Below the pieces are notes generated by a model. It was not told the origin of the DNA. It ran no database searches and worked only from the letters and a program-made list of their open reading frames with translations. From Tubulanus polymorphus (taxonomy: Eukaryota; Animalia; Nemertea), in contig NC_134028.1 of the NCBI RefSeq assembly GCF_964204645.1, positions 25,292,345-25,356,344 on the forward strand: 64,000 bases of DNA, written 5' to 3'. The position numbers were made by a program, and so were the translations under genes. Positions 5,301-56,657 of this stretch are shown here, one piece after another. Positions within the stretch are counted from its first letter, which is position 1. Each line of letters starts with the position of its first letter.

Positions 5301-6189
5301 TCGACTATGTATCCCCCTCTTAATTCCCTAAATCATTAGATTATTATCATCATTGCTATAATCATGGGTTGCCATCATATTTCGTGCTTTATCATTGCGT
5401 GATATATATTTGTAAACTATACTGCGGTCAAAGTTACAATAAAATGAAATCCAACAGTATTTACTGATAGCGAGTTTTGGGACGCACGCCATAACAAAAC
5501 GTTGTTGAATTCAAGCGCGTATTGGCTTTTGTGTAGCTGACTAAACAATGGCACTTAATCAACCGTTCACAATAACTGAACTCACACCGGAACTGCGAAT
5601 ACGTGCACAATATATCCCTCATGAAAATTTAAATCTTTCAAGTTTTTCGAGTTCAGTTCTAACGTTTATACTGTTGTTGTATGTACATGCGATTTTTCAA
5701 GTTTTCCTGACATAAGAGCAAACTCCCACAGGCAGTTTCGATGTGCAGTGAATACGACATGAAGCTGTGTAAGTTCCCCTCGTACGTTGCGGCCAATTAG
5801 TGGACTTGTTCTATTGGTCTCAATGCAGACGACGTATGGAACACGGATCGCAGGCTCGTGTGCGTTTGGCTTAATGAAGCCCCGCACACGCGCGCTGCCC
5901 GTTCCTCTTACCGTATGGGGATATTCATGTGCAGCTTTAAAGCATCCATCCAAAATCTGGATATTCAAATGATAATTTCGAGCGCACCAGTTCCCCTGGG
6001 TGTGCTTTGAGCTTTAGCAAACTCGGGTTCGATACCCGATGAGTGCACGTATATTCACTTCTTAATAATTACATACACTTCGCTAACTTCCTGACCATGT
6101 TTTTACGCATCTGGCTGCAACGAAAAAACCCAGGAGATAAATTGTAACACAATATCGTTGATTAAATTCGTTAGTAAGTATGCACAAGT

Positions 6190-6957
6190 GGCCCACTATA
6201 TTTCCCTGCGGTATAACCTCCTCCCGTCTTGCAGTAGGGCCCAGTATATTTCCCTGCGGTATAACCCCCTCCCGCCTCGCTGTAGGGCCCAGTATATTTC
6301 CCTGCGGTATAACCCCCTCCCGCCTCGCTGTAGGGCTCAGTATATTTCCCTGCGGTATAACCCCCTCCCGCCTCGCTGTAGGGCCCAGTATATTTCCCTG
6401 CGGTATAACCCCCTCCCGCCTCGCTGTAGGGCCCAGTATATTTCCCGGCGGTATAACCCCCTCCCGCCTCGCTGTAGGGCTCAGTATATTTCCCTGCGGT
6501 ATAACCTCCTCCCGTCTTGCAGTAGGGCCCAGTATATTTCCCGGCGGTATAAACCCCTCCCGTCTTGCAGTAGGGCCCAGTATATTTCCCGGCGGTATAA
6601 ACCCCTCCCGTCTTGCAGTAGGGCCCAGTATATTTCCCTGCGGTATAAACCCCTCCCGTCTTGCAGTAGGGCCCAGTATATTTCCCGGCGGTATAAACCC
6701 CTCCCGTCTTGCAATAGGGCCCAGTATATTTCCCTGAGGTATAAACCCCTCCCGTCTTGCAGTAGGGCCCAGTATATTTCCCTGAGGTATAAACCCCTCC
6801 CGTCTTGCAGTAGGGCCCAGTATATTTCCCTGCGGTATAACCCCCTCCCGTCTTGCAGTAGGGCCCAGTATATTTCCCTGCGGTATAAACCCCTCCCGTC
6901 TTGCAGTAGGGCCCAGTATATTTCCCGGCGGTATAAACCCCTCCCGTCTTGCTGTAG
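6190..6957. repeat. 48-bp minisatellite, about 16 copies
   Basis: Unit approximately gggcccagtatatttccctgcggtataaMcccctcccgYctYgcWgta repeated head to tail. Explains the 16-aa-period ORFs in several frames. Confidence 0.97.
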
Positions 6958-7862
6958 ACAGATATTGTCCCTGTTTCTTGCTGGTAAACTGACTGGTGTG
7001 GATAATCTTCTCTGTGTGTAGCACCGATAGTTTAAACTCTTATCGTGTATGATTAGACCGGTGACGATATATCAATTATAGATTATATGAAAGCTTTCTC
7101 CCTCAGGTGTCATCGGTTTTTATTTATATTCCGATATTGCACGACGTAGGTTGTATATATCCAAAATATATATATATATTTATATTCCTGCTATATAAAG
7201 CAGTAGTGAAGTGATCCGACAAGAAATAAAGCGAGGGGCGAGGTAAGAAGTTGTTATCGGTGGAGAGGCAGTGATAGATTGTACAGGAGGGATATGGAGA
7301 AAAAAAGAAAAGAGATGAAAATGAGGGTGAATCTTGAGGAAGACGACTATCAGGTTTAGCGCAAGGAACTTTTGTTTGTCATTCTAAATGTGCGTTTTTC
7401 TGCGTTGATGACGTAGTGAACGTACGACATGCTGCCACTTGAATTAAGCACATAAAATATACATACATAAAACATTTTTTAACGGTTTTTACGGCGTCAA
7501 AAAGAGAACAAAAACTGAAGGATTAGAATAAGAAGGAGTGAGTGGTGTATGAGATAGAGAAAGAGAGAGTGCATCGATACACATGAACACATGATGATTA
7601 TCAACGCTGTGAATTTTCCGACTGAAATGACAGTCGAATTTATCGGTTTGTATCACGCTGATTGGTTTATGTCGACCGCTGAGTCGTTAGAAAAACAGAA
7701 TCATCGCTTCACGCTGAGTTTATTCGCTGACATGAGAAATCTCTTAGTTCGAATAAAATGCTCGGCATCGTAAGGTCTCGTTAACCCACTCCCCGCTGCT
7801 ATGGGCTCTCTTATCGCTGTCGCAGTGAATGAATCGTAATTTGTGACTTGCGTTTTTAGGCT

Positions 7863-28500: not shown

Positions 28501-31500
28501 GAAACGACGCTTGCGCGTGTACACACATAGACGAGTTGACTTATATAACCTCGTCACAACACAAACACATACGACATACAACATACGACATGATGAGGCC
28601 TAGTTTAATCATCGTCTTATACGATAATCATCGAGAGACTATTAAATACTGGGTGGATTGTTGACTTGTGACTAATTAACGCAGTAACAATCTCCATACA
28701 TTTAACTGCAGTTCATCACACCGACTATCCCGCAGTAGTAGCGGGTGTGCTTTAAGAGGATAGCGGTCACGGGTCTCTGACTGGAGCCGATATAGCCAGC
28801 CGACCGTTCATTGAGCACTGTTAGTGACTTGGTAGCCGATTAGTACCCTCAGCCGGTCGAAAGGTTACTGATATAGAAGTGGGCCGGATAGCTGCGTGAG
28901 TGGCCCAGCCGCCCAGCTAGTCGCAGGAAAGCCCGAACAGCTGGTCGTCGAGGTAGGCTAGCTACGGACCGAGAAAGCCACACGACTGGTCACTGACAAG
29001 AGAGCGAATACCAGCCATAATATAGGACATCCATGAATGAATTAAAGAACGAAAGTTTATTCGGCCTTATTTCCGGAAGATATCGCTGATGGCCACACGG
29101 CTGGTTGTATATCGCGCCTGAGGGCTTCTCGTCTGCAACACACCGTGTCACGTGATACGTTTTAATTTGCATAATTCGAGACGTCGAACAGATTTTTTAC
29201 TGCGCTGAAGCTGTTTTCTTTATGCGAGTGATATGCTTTTCTAATCATCTGGAAGGAAGAAATCGCGGTTCGAAACGTTATCAGGGGTAGCCCGTTTTTC
29301 TATTTGATCATCGTTTGAGCGATGCACCGAACAGTCGACGTCGGGTGAAACACTATTTTAACGGCATTTGATGGAAAATTTACGGCTCTCTTCTCTCGGT
29401 TGTGCGAGAAAACACATTTATATCCGTGTATGAAAAACGACTGTTATAATAGACGGGACAATTCTACAATTCTATACTAATGATGTTTTCTCATTCTATG
29501 GCTTAGCGACGAATTTACGAACTGCGGATAGATATAACAAACGTACTTGCTTCTTAGTATTGCTAGTCCGGAAGATGGTTTACTCGTCCTGCGGGACCGT
29601 CGAATCTTTGTGTACCGAAACGACACAATTTCAGGAATTAATTGCAATGTTTGGTTAGGCAAACAAGCGTTGGTGATATTAGTATAAACCTCTTAGCGAA
29701 TAGGCTGACCGGCTTATCGTAGTCCGGACTGAATTTATCACGGAGAACGTCCTACCGAAACTGATACGAAATGCGCCACCGCATTAAACGGCGAAGAGCG
29801 GGCATTTTTAATCTTTCGATACCGAATTACGATTAATGGTAAATGTTTATGAATCTGTATAAGTTGATGTTTGAATATTGACGGTTACAGTCGCGCGTAC
29901 GGTACAATAAGTTCATTAATGGTTTGAGTGATTGGTTAACATATGCTCGTCTACGTTATCGTTGAATCAATGAGCATTGATAACCGGAGTCAATTAGATT
30001 TATACAGTATCGCAACTGTGATAACCGCTTCGAAAATCTGTGCTTAAGTTTCTATTACGCAAAACCGTCCGTCCAAACGTCGACCGCACATCGAGCGGAA
30101 AAGACAAGGACACGAGCAGATCGAATTCTAGAATATAATCGCCGAAAAAACTGGATGTCAAATTTGTGGAGTTTTACATGGCTTTCTCTGATCGAGTACC
30201 AGGTTCAGACTATAGGGATAGTAGTGAGTTGGATGGCCTGTTTAGCTAAGCTGACGTTACTTATAGTGAATATTCTCATGCAAAGTAAGTCTTCTTAATG
30301 TTCTTACTCAATTACCAAAAGTCTTTTTTCAATTCCATGGCGTTTATTACCAACCACACTTGAATGTGTCCCGAAATACGAATTTGTTGATATTTCATTC
30401 CTGGGAAAATTAATGAAACGCTGTTGCCGAAAATGACGTTTGAATATCAGAATAATTACTCGGATCTTTCAAATAGAAAATGGAAATTATAACTGTGTGG
30501 ACTTCTTCATTGGTGCAGAATTGTTGTGTGCATCAAACCACCATGATTATTCGGCCTTTGAATGCTTCTAGGGAATCATGAAGCGAATTCAAGCTTCAAT
30601 GCTGTTGGGAATGGAATTATTTTTCGTACCCATTTCGTGAGTTCACTCAACGATTTCATCGCGTTTGAAAATATCTATAACTTCGGCATTTCTTTTTTCC
30701 TAAAACGCCAATATCCCCGTCGTCGAAAGCCGCGTCTCGATATTCTAATGCTTTATAACCGGAATTTAAAAATGCAGTCGAAATGTAAGCAGCGATCGTT
30801 GCAGGTTTTTTGCACCTTTAGACACGTATTCGAGCATATACGATCGTGTTATAAGTGTAACGTCGATGGTTCGGTGTATGTTATGCGTAGGATTAGATAA
30901 CTTCTTTTTCAAATTATATCATATTCACCTAATCGTTAGACGGGTGTATAGAAAAGCTAATAATTAGAGAATTAGAAATTCAGAATAGTCAGACAGGACC
31001 AACTGGTTCCACGTAAACATTGACTCGGCGAATTAATCAATCGTAGCTTGGAGTGGTCTCCTAACTTATAACCTGTGAAAATGGGGGCCGCTTCACGGGA
31101 CGGCTTAACAATTTGTCAAGGTTTCATGAGTATTGTCGCATCACGACCACGCGAAATTAGACAAGATCTGTTTCTACCGGATCTGCGTTAACATTTGACG
31201 GTGTAATCCCCTAACATAAAACTGCGCAACTGGGGACCGTTTCATTGCTTAGCATTTCATTATGGTTTCATTAGTTTAGTCGCGTTATGACAAACCGAAT
31301 TTTAAGTCAGTTTGTGAAACGACCCCTAGATCTCTGGTCAATGTATTTTTAATGGATGGTCGTTATTGCATATTACATTATCACTAGAACATTCGTTATG
31401 CTTAGAAATGATGGCAATGGGTCATTGTTATTGTGGTAGTTCTATCTCCCCCAGGGGATATATTATCATAAATAGACAGGACCCAGTTACACAGTAAGTT

Positions 31501-45710: not shown

Positions 45711-45904
45711 ACGGTATTGCGGTCTCCGAAGAGAAAAGGTTGATAAAACACTTATTAGATGATTACGAGATGGTCGGAGTGGTTGGTCGACCTGTACTCA
45801 ATACGTCGAACACGATTCGAGTAGAATTCGGTCTGGCTCTCATTCAAATACTCGATTTAGATGAAAAAAATCAAGTGCTCACTACAAACTGCTGGAGTAG
45901 ATAT
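45711..45904 (+). CDS. nAChR subunit coding exon 2 (N-terminal helix to loop D)
   Basis: tttgcag| acceptor and |gtaagt donor. Encodes DGIAVSEEKRLIKHLLDDY...GRPVLNTSNTIRVEFGLALIQILDLDEKNQVLTTNCWSRY, with typical nAChR RPV and LIQI-D-DEKNQ-L-TN-W motifs. Confidence 0.96.
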
Positions 45905-50114: not shown

Positions 50115-50569
50115 TGCTGATGACCGTCTAGAAGAGAAACGCAAAGCCATGGCCGTTGTATCCAACGATGGATCAGTTTTATATATACCGCCAGCCATCT
50201 TCAAAAGTTCGTGCCCGATAAACACTGAACATTTCCCCTTCGATTACCAGCGATGCGACTTGAAATTCGGATCGTGGACGTACGACGGTTTCAAGTTGGA
50301 CATAGGTTTTTTCGACAGCAAAGACGAAGTGGATTTAACCGATTATATACCAAGCAACGAATGGGATGTCATATCCCATCCGGCAATTAAGAATACTAAA
50401 TATTATCCATGCTGTAAAGAACCTTATCCAGACCTGACATTTACTGTCGTCATTAAAAGGAAATCTGCTTTTTACAATTACATTCTAATACTGCCGTGTG
50501 TACTGTTATCGTCCTTGACCTTGGTGGTGTTCTGGTTGCCCCCGGAATCTCCCGCTAAAATGGTACTGG
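50115..50569 (+). CDS. nAChR subunit coding exon 4 (Cys-loop, loops B and C, M1, start of M2)
   Basis: tttgcag| acceptor and G|gtacgt donor. Contains Cys-loop CPINTEHFPFDYQRC (C-x13-C), loop B FGSWTYDG, loop C KYYPCCKEPYPD (vicinal cysteines mark an alpha subunit), M1 YILILPCVLLSSLTLVVFWLP and the linker PPESPAKMVLG. Confidence 0.98.
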
Positions 50570-51793
50570 GTACGTATTTTTTTATTTCTTTTTTTCTAGA
50601 TTACAATAACAACCTTTTTCAAATTCTGCATTACTATTAGGACTTTCAATATGTTTGAGATTTATTGCTATATTCGTCGTATACGTGACTGTTCTTGAAC
50701 TTTAACCATCCCATATAAAGGCTAATATGTCAAGAAATTAAGTATAGAAGTTCCTGGACCCAGTTCTGCAGTTGGTAGATAAAAAAAAATTATATTATGC
50801 TTTGGAGTCGATAAGGACTAGATCCTGTAAGTCAAATCAAAATAAGAATATAGGTAAAGACTGTTCATGAATTTTCGTTTTGATTTTAGCTTTCAAAGCG
50901 GTCTATGCTAATAGAGCACTTGCTTACGCTGACTCAAGAACAAACATGTTTATCCAAGATTCAATTCATCGACTTTAAGTTGATAATAAAGAATGCATTA
51001 TCACATTTCGTGGTAACCACTACATATGATTATAAAGGATCTATGGACATGTCGATAATTTTCGATCATGGATATTTGTCGACTTTTCTGACATTTGGAT
51101 TGATATTTTTGAATTTACATGGAAAACTGTTTTTGATGAATATGAGTTGCGAATGACCATTAGAAGTAAATATTTCTGATACGTCACCATGACCCCCCGT
51201 GGGGTGCTGCAAATAGGTGATAAAAATAGAACGCTAATTTAACCTGAGTTAACAGTAATTATCACTATATACATCCAGGTTGTTTATGGGACAGAGCAAA
51301 AATTCTTTAAGGCTGTGGACTATGAGATTAGATTGAATCTTGATGGATTTTTGGTTTAGTATTCATATCGATATTGTATTGTAAATTTTTGTGATTCGAT
51401 TTTCAATGTTTCACCTCGCCCGCAGCCAAAACTTCGACGTGAAAACTTGATCGCAACCGTCCTTTTCGAATCGTCGCATCATCCAACTTTGTCCCACTAA
51501 ATCACTAAATCGGAAAGGATTTCTTTGGATGATAGGAAAAATATTCCATTTTCAACTATCAAAAAAATTCTACAGAATTCAATTCATTTAACTATTAGAT
51601 TCATTTTCATGCTCCTGAATTAACCATATAATCCTATTTGGCTATTTCAACCTAGTGTTGTTATCGACGATTCCACTTGTGGCAAGTAGGGTCCACCAGT
51701 CGGCAATAGCGTGCAGTAGGACAGCAACGCTGTATTCCATCTCAGATTCAATCAAGATATATAATATGTATAATGCTCGTTTCATCGAGTAAT

Positions 51794-51995
51794 GTCCTAC
51801 TGTAACCCACGCCATCTGGTGGTATAGCTAGCTAGTATGGCTTAAGTAAGCCACGCCATCTGGCGGCCTTGAAAGAAATTTATCTTACTGTTAGCCACGC
51901 AATCTGGTGGCTTTAAGAGAAGTAGGTCCTACTAATAGCAACGCCATCAGCTTACTAGAATATCCTACTGTGAAGGACGCCATCTGGTGGAATAG
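51794..51995. repeat. Degenerate ~44-bp tandem array, each unit carrying a CGCCATCTGGTGG-like core
   Basis: Cores start at 51810, 51854, 51898, 51942 (degenerate) and 51978, with spacing 44, 44, 44 and 36. Confidence 0.85.
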
Positions 51996-52108
51996 TTGGT
52001 GGCATCGGCCGGGATTGACACAAGCTTTCGTTTGTTATCTAATAGGATATGTATCATTTTAGGCTTTCAGAGTGTTTGCGAGTATATATGATATTGTGTA
52101 ATTTTCAG

Positions 52109-52195
52109 GTATGAACATATTTGTGGCATTTTTCGTGCTGTTGCTTCTTTTAGCAGACACGACCCCGCCGGCAGCCAGGAAAATCCCGTTGATAG
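52109..52195 (+). CDS. nAChR subunit alternative exon 5a (M2 helix and M2-M3 loop)
   Basis: ttttcag| acceptor, G|gtaggg donor, 87 nt, phase 1/1. Encodes (G)MNIFVAFFVLLLLLADTTPPAARKIPLI(G). Confidence 0.92.
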
Positions 52196-52421
52196 GTAGG
52201 GGACCAGCCGGCCAACATAAACAAATTCTTCGACCCAGTGTACCCATCTATCTATCTCTCCTGGAAATCACTCCGTGGCATGTTTTACCACTGTAGCTTC
52301 CGTGATCTGTACGTGACTTCCGGAGAGGTCGCATACAGTCGCGCCATCTATATCTGACCTATATTTATATTATTATATGTATCTGAACTGAGACGACGGA
52401 CGTTGTTTTTATACATTTCAG

Positions 52422-52508
52422 GAATGAATATTTTTGTGGCCTTCTTTTTGTTACTACTTTTGTTGGCAGATGTAACTCCGCCCGCTGCGAGTAACGTACC
52501 CCGTATAG
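52422..52508 (+). CDS. nAChR subunit alternative exon 5b (duplicate M2 helix and M2-M3 loop)
   Basis: atttcag| acceptor, G|gtaaaa donor, 87 nt, phase 1/1. Encodes (G)MNIFVAFFLLLLLLADVTPPAASNVPRI(G); 23 of 29 residues are identical to exon 5a. Confidence 0.92.
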
Positions 52509-54188
52509 GTAAAATCCGGCACTTTGCATGGCTCATATCGTCCTGCAATTTTTCAACAGTCTTATATATCATTAGATCGCACCCAACGTACATATACACA
52601 TTTTCTAAAACGTGATCATTGGACGAACAATTTTGATCAATTTTTCTCAGCTACGATTGCAATTATTCCACCGACGCTTGCAAGGAATTTCGAGCCTTTA
52701 CACGCTTGAAAACTAACAATGATTAATTCCACGTTTTGTGTTCATTTAAAAAACTAACCTTTTTCAAGACAAAACCCCCCATCAGAACACCACAGGAACC
52801 GAACAACAAATGTTAATCAGATCTTCATTCTATTATACAAATTACAAATTATCATGTACGGTAGTATCACCTTTCACAATTTCCTAAACAAACATTAATC
52901 CTAAAACAACCCGGCCAAAATTCCTTGCTCGCTTATTTTCATCACATCGCTGTATAAAGAGCTTGCTTCGGGCAGCTGGCAAAGGTATAGACATCTCGAG
53001 GTTTAGATATAAGGGGCCGGATGCTGCCAACAAGATCGATGGTTATTTATGTGCAAATCTTTGCTTTTTTCAGTTTCACGATGTAAAAACTATGTATTCA
53101 CGCAGCCAATATACAGTGTAGTTCGATACGACACTAAATCATCACTATACCTTTGCCTACTTAACACGAGCCCCTGATTATTTCGGGGCTTTGTCGTCAT
53201 TTCAAAATTTTTCAATGTTGTTCCCTTTGTGATTTAAATTCTCGCATCTCAGTTGGTTAGACACATTGTTTGATAAATAGTAAAATGTAGTTCATCTCAG
53301 TCAAGCATCAAAAACATAGCATAGATATTCGATTCATTGTGCGATGCATTGTACCAATTCCTGAAAATGAACCACCTTTCTGCTTTTATTTTCATGAATT
53401 GCTATTAATATGATTTCTTGTAATAAATATGTTACCGCAAAATGTCTACGTATCTCATTTCAAATGAACGGTCGTCGGATGCAAGCACACTGTCAATTAG
53501 GAAGTAAATGCCTGGAATAGGTCTGAACGCACGGACAGTTCAACAAAACAACCATCGATTTCCAATCACATTTTACACTGTTTTGATGAAATTGGCGAAA
53601 AGAAATCTTGTTGTTTTACGTGGGTTCACAGATAATTTCTAGCACTTTGAAACTTTGCCTTCAAACGGGACCAAAACATCGAAATGATCAAGGTTTTTAG
53701 GCAGGATCGTTAACGTGTTTGAAAAAAATCCGAAGAAATTTTACAAAATGCTGGGGATTTTCTGTGATACCATCCAATGCAATAAGGTATTTATCGATTT
53801 CTTATCAGTTAAACACCTATTAGGTATATATCCCCGTTATAAAAAGAGAAATGGCACTAAACCGACCGTGCATTTGAAATGAAATGTAAATTAGTTAGAG
53901 CTTGATCAGTTGATCCAATGAAATACGTCATCGCGTCCTTTCCCAGGACGATACACATTGATCTGTTTACATTGATCTGTTCGCACATAATCTCCCTTCA
54001 TTTTGCGCACACAATTTTTAGTGTAGTATTTCATTCTAATGTGGAGTGGTTGTTGTCATCAGTTTGTTTTAGTGATACCGCGTGACTCGTAGAAGCACGT
54101 GACGTCACAATGAGTTGTAGAACTTCGTGGCTGCGAATGAGACGTAAGAATCGGAAATGAGCTCATCACGTATGACGCGATTCACCTG

Positions 54189-55492: not shown

Positions 55493-55611
55493 GTGCGTAC
55501 TATTGCTTAAACATGATTCTCATTACACTGTCAACGTTCTTGTCCGTTATAGTCATAAACCTATACTTCCGTGGTGATAGAAAAAACCGTGTACCAAGAT
55601 GGCTAAAACTG
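55493..55611 (+). CDS. nAChR subunit coding exon 6 (M3 and MX start)
   Basis: ccttgcag| acceptor and |gtacgt donor. Encodes (G)AYYCLNMILITLSTFLSVIVINLYFRGDRKNRVPRWLKL, the M3 helix followed by the conserved P-x-W motif. Confidence 0.96.
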
Positions 55612-55668
55612 GTACGTACCGTATTACAACAATGTATTACAAAGTATTACAGGTCATTGGGGCACCGA

Positions 55669-56007
55669 CATCCTCCCCCGGCAGGGATTCGAACCTGATG
55701 GCATCGAGATTGCCACGGCACGAAACCCTGCCATTATCGACCGTGTGCGCAGATACATGCGCAGTTCAGATGATGTGATTTTTAGCCAATCAGAAATCCC
55801 GTTTTATTTTAGCCCGGGGTTTCCCATTTATAGTTCTTCCTTGAAATTTGCCTCAACGATTATACAACGAGCAATCTGATTGGTGCCGCCAGTTTTCGTT
55901 CGGAAAGCTGCGCATGTACCTGCGCACCCGGTCTACTGATGCAGGGGTTCGTGCCGTGGCTGAGTGTAGAGATGCCATCAGGTTCGAGTCCCTGCAGAGG
56001 GAGGATG
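55669..56007. mobile_element. Non-autonomous Mutator/foldback-type element with ~100-bp TIRs and a 9-bp TSD
   Basis: Arms 55669-55766 and 55905-56007 are imperfect reverse complements (CATCCTCCC...GGGAGGATG). The direct repeat gggcaccga flanks it at 55660-55668 and 56008-56016. Confidence 0.8.
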
Positions 56008-56183
56008 GGGCACCGACGGCACGCACTAGATGGCGCACCATGTTTTATATCGTTAATATATATTGACTTACCATACGATACGCGCGCCATCTAGTGGGAT
56101 AAGCACGTGGTTGTTATTATTATTGATCGGTTTTAATTGTCGTTTCGAACTCATTATCTTCAACCTCTCATTTTGTGTCGTAG

Positions 56184-56657
56184 GTGATGGTGGATTTCCT
56201 CGCGTGTTTGATGTGTTTGCGCGGAGAAATCATTCCCGAAGAACAAAAACGTTTAGAAACTGTCAAAACCGACGGTAAAACGAAAGACAAGAAGAAAATC
56301 AAATGCCCAGAGTTAAAATATAACAAATTCCAAATGTCAGACGTCTACCGAGACGGGAATCACGCCCGCAACCACGCCGAGTCGACCTCACCGGACAAAT
56401 CTCCGATTCATCTAAGTCATTCTCTTGAATCAGACGTCAGAGAAATAAGGCGCCAAATACGAACTATTATGCACCGAATAACGGACAAAGAGGCGCAGGC
56501 CAAAGTGAATCTGGAATGGCGAATTGTGGCGCTCGTTTTAGACCGGTTGTTTTTCTTCATTTATCTAACTACGATCATTGTGTCGCTAGCGACCATATTC
56601 CCCAGAACGCAAAACATATCCGACGTCACAGAGACGACCACGCCCGGCACGTCCTGA
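56184..56657 (+). CDS. nAChR subunit final coding exon 7 (intracellular loop, MA, M4, C-terminus)
   Basis: tgtcgtag| acceptor in phase 0. Contains EWRIVALVLDRLFFFIYLTTIIVSLATIF (MA-M4 signature) and ends at TGA 56655-56657. Spliced CDS is 154+194+110+455+87+119+474=1593 nt, or 530 aa. Confidence 0.96.
   Translation: MMVDFLACLMCLRGEIIPEEQKRLETVKTDGKTKDKKKIKCPELKYNKFQMSDVYRDGNHARNHAESTSPDKSPIHLSHSLESDVREIRRQIRTIMHRITDKEAQAKVNLEWRIVALVLDRLFFFIYLTTIIVSLATIFPRTQNISDVTETTTPGTS

Follow-up and report, generated by a model that had tools for sequence, protein, structure and literature searches.

Two tandem M2 exons, probably spliced singly, in a putative anionic nicotinic subunit of the nemertean Tubulanus polymorphus

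In insects, transcripts encoding the nicotinic acetylcholine receptor (nAChR) subunit alpha6 carry one of the mutually exclusive exons 8a, 8b and 8c, which cover the second transmembrane segment, TM2 or M2 (excerpts of PMC1919356, PMC2064938 and PMC6393475). The subunits AChRB, LnAChR-B and SmACC are acetylcholine-gated chloride channels (excerpts of 10.1101/2025.04.02.646353 and PMC4055736; van Nierop 2005, as cited); octopus AChRB1 was shown to be one in oocytes (10.1101/2025.04.02.646353, in part), and a Pro-Ala motif has been tied to anion selectivity (PMC4055736, in part). A literature search, largely of open-access main texts, returned no publication describing AChRB genes with alternative M2 exons, and the searched portions of PMC6896357, PMC13174522, PMC4055736 and 10.1101/2025.04.02.646353 carry no mention of splicing, nor, in the latter two, of M2 exon variants.

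The gene described here lies in a 64,000-nt window of T. polymorphus (contig NC_134028.1, forward strand, 25,292,345 to 25,356,344), the whole stretch of DNA that was analysed, and resembles both systems. As with insect alpha6 exon 8, tandem TM2 exon duplicates, old and conserved, occur in a nicotinic alpha subunit, and the predicted isoforms differ in pore and loop residues; as in AChRB, LnAChR-B and SmACC, the protein has Pro-Ala-Lys (PAK) at -2' to 0' and the vicinal cysteines of loop C. The insect protein is, however, an arthropod cation-type subunit with GEK, whereas the window gene encodes a PAK subunit. We put at about 70% the probability of the following reading: the product is a nicotinic subunit of alpha type that belongs to the Pro-Ala group and likely conducts chloride, and the two intact M2 exons of the gene are likely spliced singly into subunits predicted to differ in gating and not in ion charge.

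A PAK-type nicotinic gene with two M2 exons

The gene model comprises the following features:

30233..30284, + strand: candidate first (signal-peptide) exon; the sole hydrophobic ATG-to-phase-1-donor candidate upstream of exon 2 that passed the filter
45711..45904, + strand: exon 2, start of the ligand-binding domain; AG/GT ends, profile match of 104 bits
49275..49384, + strand: exon 3; AG/GT ends, profile match
50115..50569, + strand: exon 4, constitutive; Cys-loop, loop C vicinal Cys-Cys, M1 and the Pro(-2')-Ala(-1')-Lys(0') filter (Pfam PF02931 and PF02932; translation; Lineus relative aligned to human alpha4)
52109..52195, + strand: alternative exon 5a; M2 from 4' to 20' and M2-M3 loop, with Val13', Thr21', Arg27', Lys28', Ile29' and Leu31'
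52196..52421, + strand: intron between 5a and 5b, 226 nt; branch-point-like TCTGAC 69 nt 5' of the 5b acceptor
52422..52508, + strand: alternative exon 5b; Leu13', Val21', Ser27', Asn28', Val29' and Arg31'
55493..55611, + strand: exon 6, M3 (reading frame, profile)
56184..56657, + strand: coding part of exon 7; intracellular loop, M4 and stop (reading frame; Pfam PF02932)

With PF02931 and PF02932, a YYPCC motif and a full reading frame, the product has the features of a nicotinic (Cys-loop) alpha subunit, and its Lineus relative aligns to the alpha4 and alpha7 structures. Exon 4 ends in PPESPAK, and in the alignment made through the Lineus relative PAK replaces the GEK of alpha4, as is typical of the AChRB group. 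The best single-domain matches are lophotrochozoan PAK subunits (Owenia, Lineus and others); without M2, the protein shows 73.5% identity with XP_064636777 of Lineus longissimus, and in a tree of AChRB-group members it is sister to Lineus with an SH-aLRT of 93, this being a quick tree without cation-type outgroup, from which two long rows were dropped and the M2 exon removed, and in which locus proteins were assembled from tblastn hits. The gene is thus best classed, as the initial annotation had proposed for the Pro-Ala clade, as an AChRB / LnAChR-B-type subunit closest to that of the nemertean Lineus, and its M2 is almost identical to that of Lymnaea subunit B (ABA60381). Its product is likely a chloride channel, anion selectivity being read from the motif. 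Since no current was obtained from homomers for two of the three AChRB genes of octopus (10.1101/2025.04.02.646353, in part), the window subunit may need partners.

Some further features of the window and of related genes were recorded. Intron 6 holds, at 55660-56050, a very high-copy repeat with inverted arms, MITE- or SINE-like (its summed depth is about 46,500, that of its surroundings about 20), and at about 6100-7040 a 48-nt minisatellite gives rise to long open frames. Exon 3 is single in the window, unlike in an Owenia paralog, where the segment of exon 3 is all that distinguishes the models CAH1795658.1 and CAH1795657.1 (P0008 and P0129), in the manner of exons 3a/3b of insect alpha6. 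Lineus isoforms (P0007, P0122-P0125) show several alternative N-termini, and the window has one candidate first exon.

Exons 5a and 5b are 87 nt each, preceded by CAG and followed by GTA, in phase 1/1 and separated by 226 nt. Our recount agrees with the initial annotation that 23 of 29 codons, the split Gly codon included, encode the same residue, and that 16 of these 23 use different synonymous codons. Insect alpha6 exon 8 is likewise 87 nt long. NG86 counts give a pS of 0.95 and a pN of 0.14 (Fisher p 4e-12), and flanking sequences are unrelated (34/100 nt match upstream, 22/100 downstream); because of these values and of the unrelated 100-nt flanks, we read the pair, in line with the earlier proposal, as an old duplication with purifying selection on both copies. 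The two exons are thus adjacent homologues of equal length and phase, with intact splice sites and constraint on both, as is characteristic of mutually exclusive exons. Exon 5b is the counterpart of the M2 exon in the Lineus RefSeq isoforms, and 5a retains 25 of the 29 residues of the Lymnaea B exon. A family profile scan of the window found neither a third M2-exon copy nor a duplicate of any other exon.

An assembly artefact or a dead duplicate, already discounted by the initial annotation, can be regarded as refuted: the exons match at just 57 of 87 nt and have unrelated flanks, the same pair is found in other genomes, and a single contig of run X1 covers 51700-53200 with both exons, differing from the window by 9 substitutions and 3 indels, all intronic. 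Note that X1 is possibly the sample behind the window's assembly, so that it rules out an error of assembly without adding independent evidence, and that the absence of substitutions in the exons (0 in 174 exonic nt versus 9 in 1327) is too slight to count. The contigs of X1-X3 show no joints at the exon edges; they are DNA-like and uninformative on expression.

Predicted consequences of the exon swap

All four splice paths (5a, 5b, both or neither) remain in frame to a single stop in exon 7, and encode, counted from exon 2, 478 residues with either exon alone, 507 with both and 449 with neither. With prime numbering placed by alignment to human alpha4, 5a and 5b differ at six positions (13' V/L, 21' T/V, 27' R/S, 28' K/N, 29' I/V and 31' L/R), only the first of which lies inside the M2 helix, the other five being at 21' and in the M2-M3 loop; Asp20' is common to both. 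Pro, Ala and Lys at -2', -1' and 0' all fall on constitutive exon 4, in a stretch where the alignment of Lineus to human alpha4 is gap-free. Position 13' is part of the hydrophobic gate between 9' and 16' (PMC10757554, in part), and the M2-M3 loop is established as the link from binding to opening (excerpts of PMC2151658 and PMC5217088).

In the mechanism that we propose, exon 4 would be joined to either 5a or 5b and then to exon 6. The swap would exchange Val and Leu at 13' in the hydrophobic gate and alter four residues of the M2-M3 loop, which couples binding to opening, with 5a adding Arg-Lys; these changes would shift open probability, agonist sensitivity or desensitisation, and mixed pentamers would give a graded version of that shift. 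Because the Pro-Ala filter sits on constitutive exon 4, exon choice likely tunes gating and not ion charge, a change of which is unlikely. Counted against this reading are the conservative nature of Val to Leu, whose effect in AChRB channels is putative, and three pairs without a 13' difference (L001, L089 and scallops).

That exon choice instead switches ion selectivity or conductance class is very unlikely. Position 13' is among those changed in the classic alpha7 cation-to-anion conversion, and the outer loop has extra basic residues, two in 5a and one in 5b; against this, the filter lies on constitutive exon 4, the residue at 13' is hydrophobic in either exon, both have Asp20', and other pairs do not conserve the basic residues. 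The earlier term "pore switching" is thus too strong, the filter being on exon 4 and Val/Leu at 13' the sole change inside the M2 helix.

Exon use in relatives and the control of exclusivity

Mutually exclusive use, as first proposed, finds support in relatives, whose M2 exon pairs are already visible as RefSeq isoforms. Alternative M2 peptides occur in 3 of the 30 protein clusters opened. Lingula has three Val and one Leu models, and XP_013418082 and XP_013418084 differ in this exon alone, as do XP_052824820 and XP_052824821 of Octopus bimaculoides, with O. sinensis likewise. Among the 15 of 26 members listed for the Octopus paralog, the 12 full-length ones comprise 7 with Val, 3 with Leu, 2 that skip the exon and none with both. 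Four scallops have RefSeq isoforms differing only in the M2 exon; in their paralog cluster, ten full-length models divide into 4 + 4 with a single exon, one with both (Argopecten XP_069122895) and one partial. Two more models in other clusters skip the exon, skipping being seen in scallops and Aplysia as well as in Octopus, and among 120 of 125 matches to a doubled-M2 query no other model had both exons. RefSeq models rest mostly on RNA-seq. An intron-free 500-aa ORF from Logan (P0299), whose contig is no longer than 2417 nt, has the Leu exon alone and is probably a transcript. Either-or use in relatives is thus supported by gene models, with both-exon and skip exceptions, and is likely for 5a and 5b in T. 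polymorphus as judged from the sequence.

The exceptions bear on the idea of leaky cassettes, in which transcripts with neither exon or with both would be frequent and would encode subunits that fail to conduct or are dominant-negative, thereby regulating receptor number. The four in-frame paths, an intron long enough to splice, the Argopecten model and the skip models of Octopus, scallops and Aplysia all fit it; single-exon models nevertheless prevail (Lingula 4/4, Octopus 10/12 among the members listed, scallop cluster 8/10), an odd change in helix number would presumably invert M3-M4, and the double model of Dimorphilus (see below) may be a gene-finder join. We regard leaky cassettes as quite unlikely.

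It is also unlikely, though worth weighing, that 5b is constitutive in practice and 5a rare or recently silenced, like silkworm alpha6 exon 8c, for which Bombyx has no cDNA (PMC1919356, in part). All five Lineus RefSeq isoforms and all three Watersipora isoforms carry the Leu exon alone, from which one copy may dominate; the second exon of the Watersipora-like L017/L061 is strongly diverged, and Arg27'-Lys28' in 5a is unusual. Against a silenced 5a stand its 25/29 match to the Lymnaea B exon, its intact splice sites and saturated synonymous sites, the retention of a Val exon in the nemertean-like P0417, and the predominance of the Val form in Lingula (3/4) and the Octopus paralog (7/12 among the members listed). 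Single use of two intact exons remains our preferred reading.

Exclusivity is, on the sequence, not guaranteed, as the products with both exons and with none stay in frame, and it is here that the initial claim needs qualification. Two passive mechanisms were considered and rejected: a steric block, since an intron of 226 nt leaves room for splicing and has its branch-like site 69 nt before the 5b acceptor, and a frame shift with nonsense decay, since the double product is in frame. For these same reasons, regulated splice-site choice would, by exclusion, be what enforces exclusivity. The sites of both exons, checked for a U2/U12 mix, are ordinary GT-AG. The best candidate of a docking-selector scan (52999-53028), which can pair with a CCGGC stretch after either donor, was not significant (7/150 shuffles, 5/25 over the whole intron, 1 of 10 tests). 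AG precedes the donor GT in 21/21 dereplicated tandem exons versus 8/52 single ones (two 90-nt exons were scored by eye), a count that represents about four lineages and not 21 independent cases, and that hints at donors under regulation. The 14-mer ATATTTGTGGCATT, present in 7/21 tandem and 0/52 single exons, is possibly an exonic element or codon bias. No conserved intron element common to the window and other lineages was found. Just upstream of 5a, at 51791-51995, there are four to five copies, diverged from one another, of a 44-nt unit, which has a 13-nt look-alike between the exons (52337-52349) and occurs also on another X1 contig.

Tandem M2 exons in other genes and their origin

A degenerate pattern for the exon start retrieved 97 metagenome loci, 96 of which contained the M2 exon (L035 was a false match) and 14 contained two copies. 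Dereplicated at 93%, these 14 represent 10 distinct genes, annelid- and bryozoan-like, with M1 and M3 exons flanking the pair in 6/10; single-copy dereplicated genes with both flanks in view numbered 8, and another 44 were not judgeable. Most pairs differ at gate residue 13' (Val/Leu). The annelid-like L024, which groups with Owenia paralog 2, agrees with the window gene in the layout of exons 2-7 and in having Val before Leu, the order also found in L049 and L095. Five bryozoan-like loci with Watersipora as best match (L016, L017, L063, L069 and L076) have Leu then Val with spacers of 63-525 nt, and L001 and L089 are Leu/Leu. Read-through ORFs with tandem copies were seen in the annelid-like P0412 and in P0417, where a Val exon is followed after about 222 nt by a Leu exon with an ADVT signature also present in 5b and Lineus; the Dimorphilus model DgyrCDS7085 fuses two M2-exon copies. 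P0417 and the Lineus-like P0491, whose contigs are of equal length, may lie on one contig. Among nemertean-like genes, then, the sequences place the duplication before the split of the window species and the P0417 lineage.

Some of these loci showed features of their own. In L024, L049 and L095, Leu exon DNA is better conserved (79-83 of 87) than Val exon DNA (71-75 of 87), and the acceptor of the second exon is conserved, as is an intron block downstream of it. On the L024/L068 contig, an AChRB paralog with a single M2 exon and Arg16' lies directly downstream of the two-exon gene. In L076, whose M2 exons are just 63 nt apart, the M1 exon is also tandemly duplicated (1903-2013 and 2064-2168), one copy ending in ESPAK and the other in ESAAK, a choice that would affect the proline at -2' in the selectivity filter.

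As to origin, 5a and 5b share 6-7 of 29 residues with an arthropod alpha7-like M2 segment, used in place of alpha6 exon 8 sequences, versus 23 of 29 with each other, so the duplication appears separate from that of insect alpha6 exon 8, as had been suggested. Orthology to the insect exons fails on both counts, the window gene being a PAK subunit and its copies closer to each other.

Whether all Val13'/Ile29' and Leu13'/Val29' exons descend from one duplication in an annelid/nemertean/brachiopod/mollusc ancestor is a more tentative matter. They would then form an undescribed, phylum-spanning gate splice switch that later gave separate Val-only or Leu-only genes in flatworms and mollusc subunit B; we find this possible, with the balance somewhat against it. 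In its favour, nemertean-like and annelid-like genes agree in order and residue pairing, the Lingula and Octopus isoform pairs have the window's Val13'/Ile29' versus Leu13'/Val29', and the Leu exons of these two share an identical one-residue deletion, which makes them one residue shorter than the window's. Residues 13' and 29' are also associated across 80 distinct peptides (23 V/I, 7 V/V, 5 L/I and 13 L/V), kin among them not being independent. Against it, bryozoan-like order is reversed, between-species DNA identity gives no orthology signal (a-a / b-b) for 5a or 5b, and in the tree the pairs are scattered over paralogs; those of Octopus and scallops sit in other paralogs than the window gene, under automatic annotation. 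Three duplications are clearly separate, those of the scallop pair, L001 and L089, in each of which the two copies have residues specific to their gene in common, the scallop pair being Val/Val with paralog-specific residues, unlike the window's Val/Leu. Mollusc subunit-B clusters, unlike the window gene, have a single M2 peptide, no alternative one being found in 13/13. The suggestion of an undescribed system holds as regards the literature searched, in which no publication was found, but not as regards RefSeq isoform lists, which show it, nor as a one-off, since it recurs in several invertebrate groups.

In the nervous systems of molluscs, worms and flatworms, inhibitory acetylcholine receptors have a central role, and they have been studied one cDNA per gene. 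If our reading is correct, one gene would give two gates, an arrangement that several phyla have either retained or evolved anew, each time with Val or Leu as the options at 13', and a parallel in an inhibitory receptor to the excitatory insect alpha6 exon 8. It would also provide a natural experiment on how channel behaviour depends on one residue of the gate and on the M2-M3 loop. Tests are feasible at present, since oocytes express an octopus member of the group.
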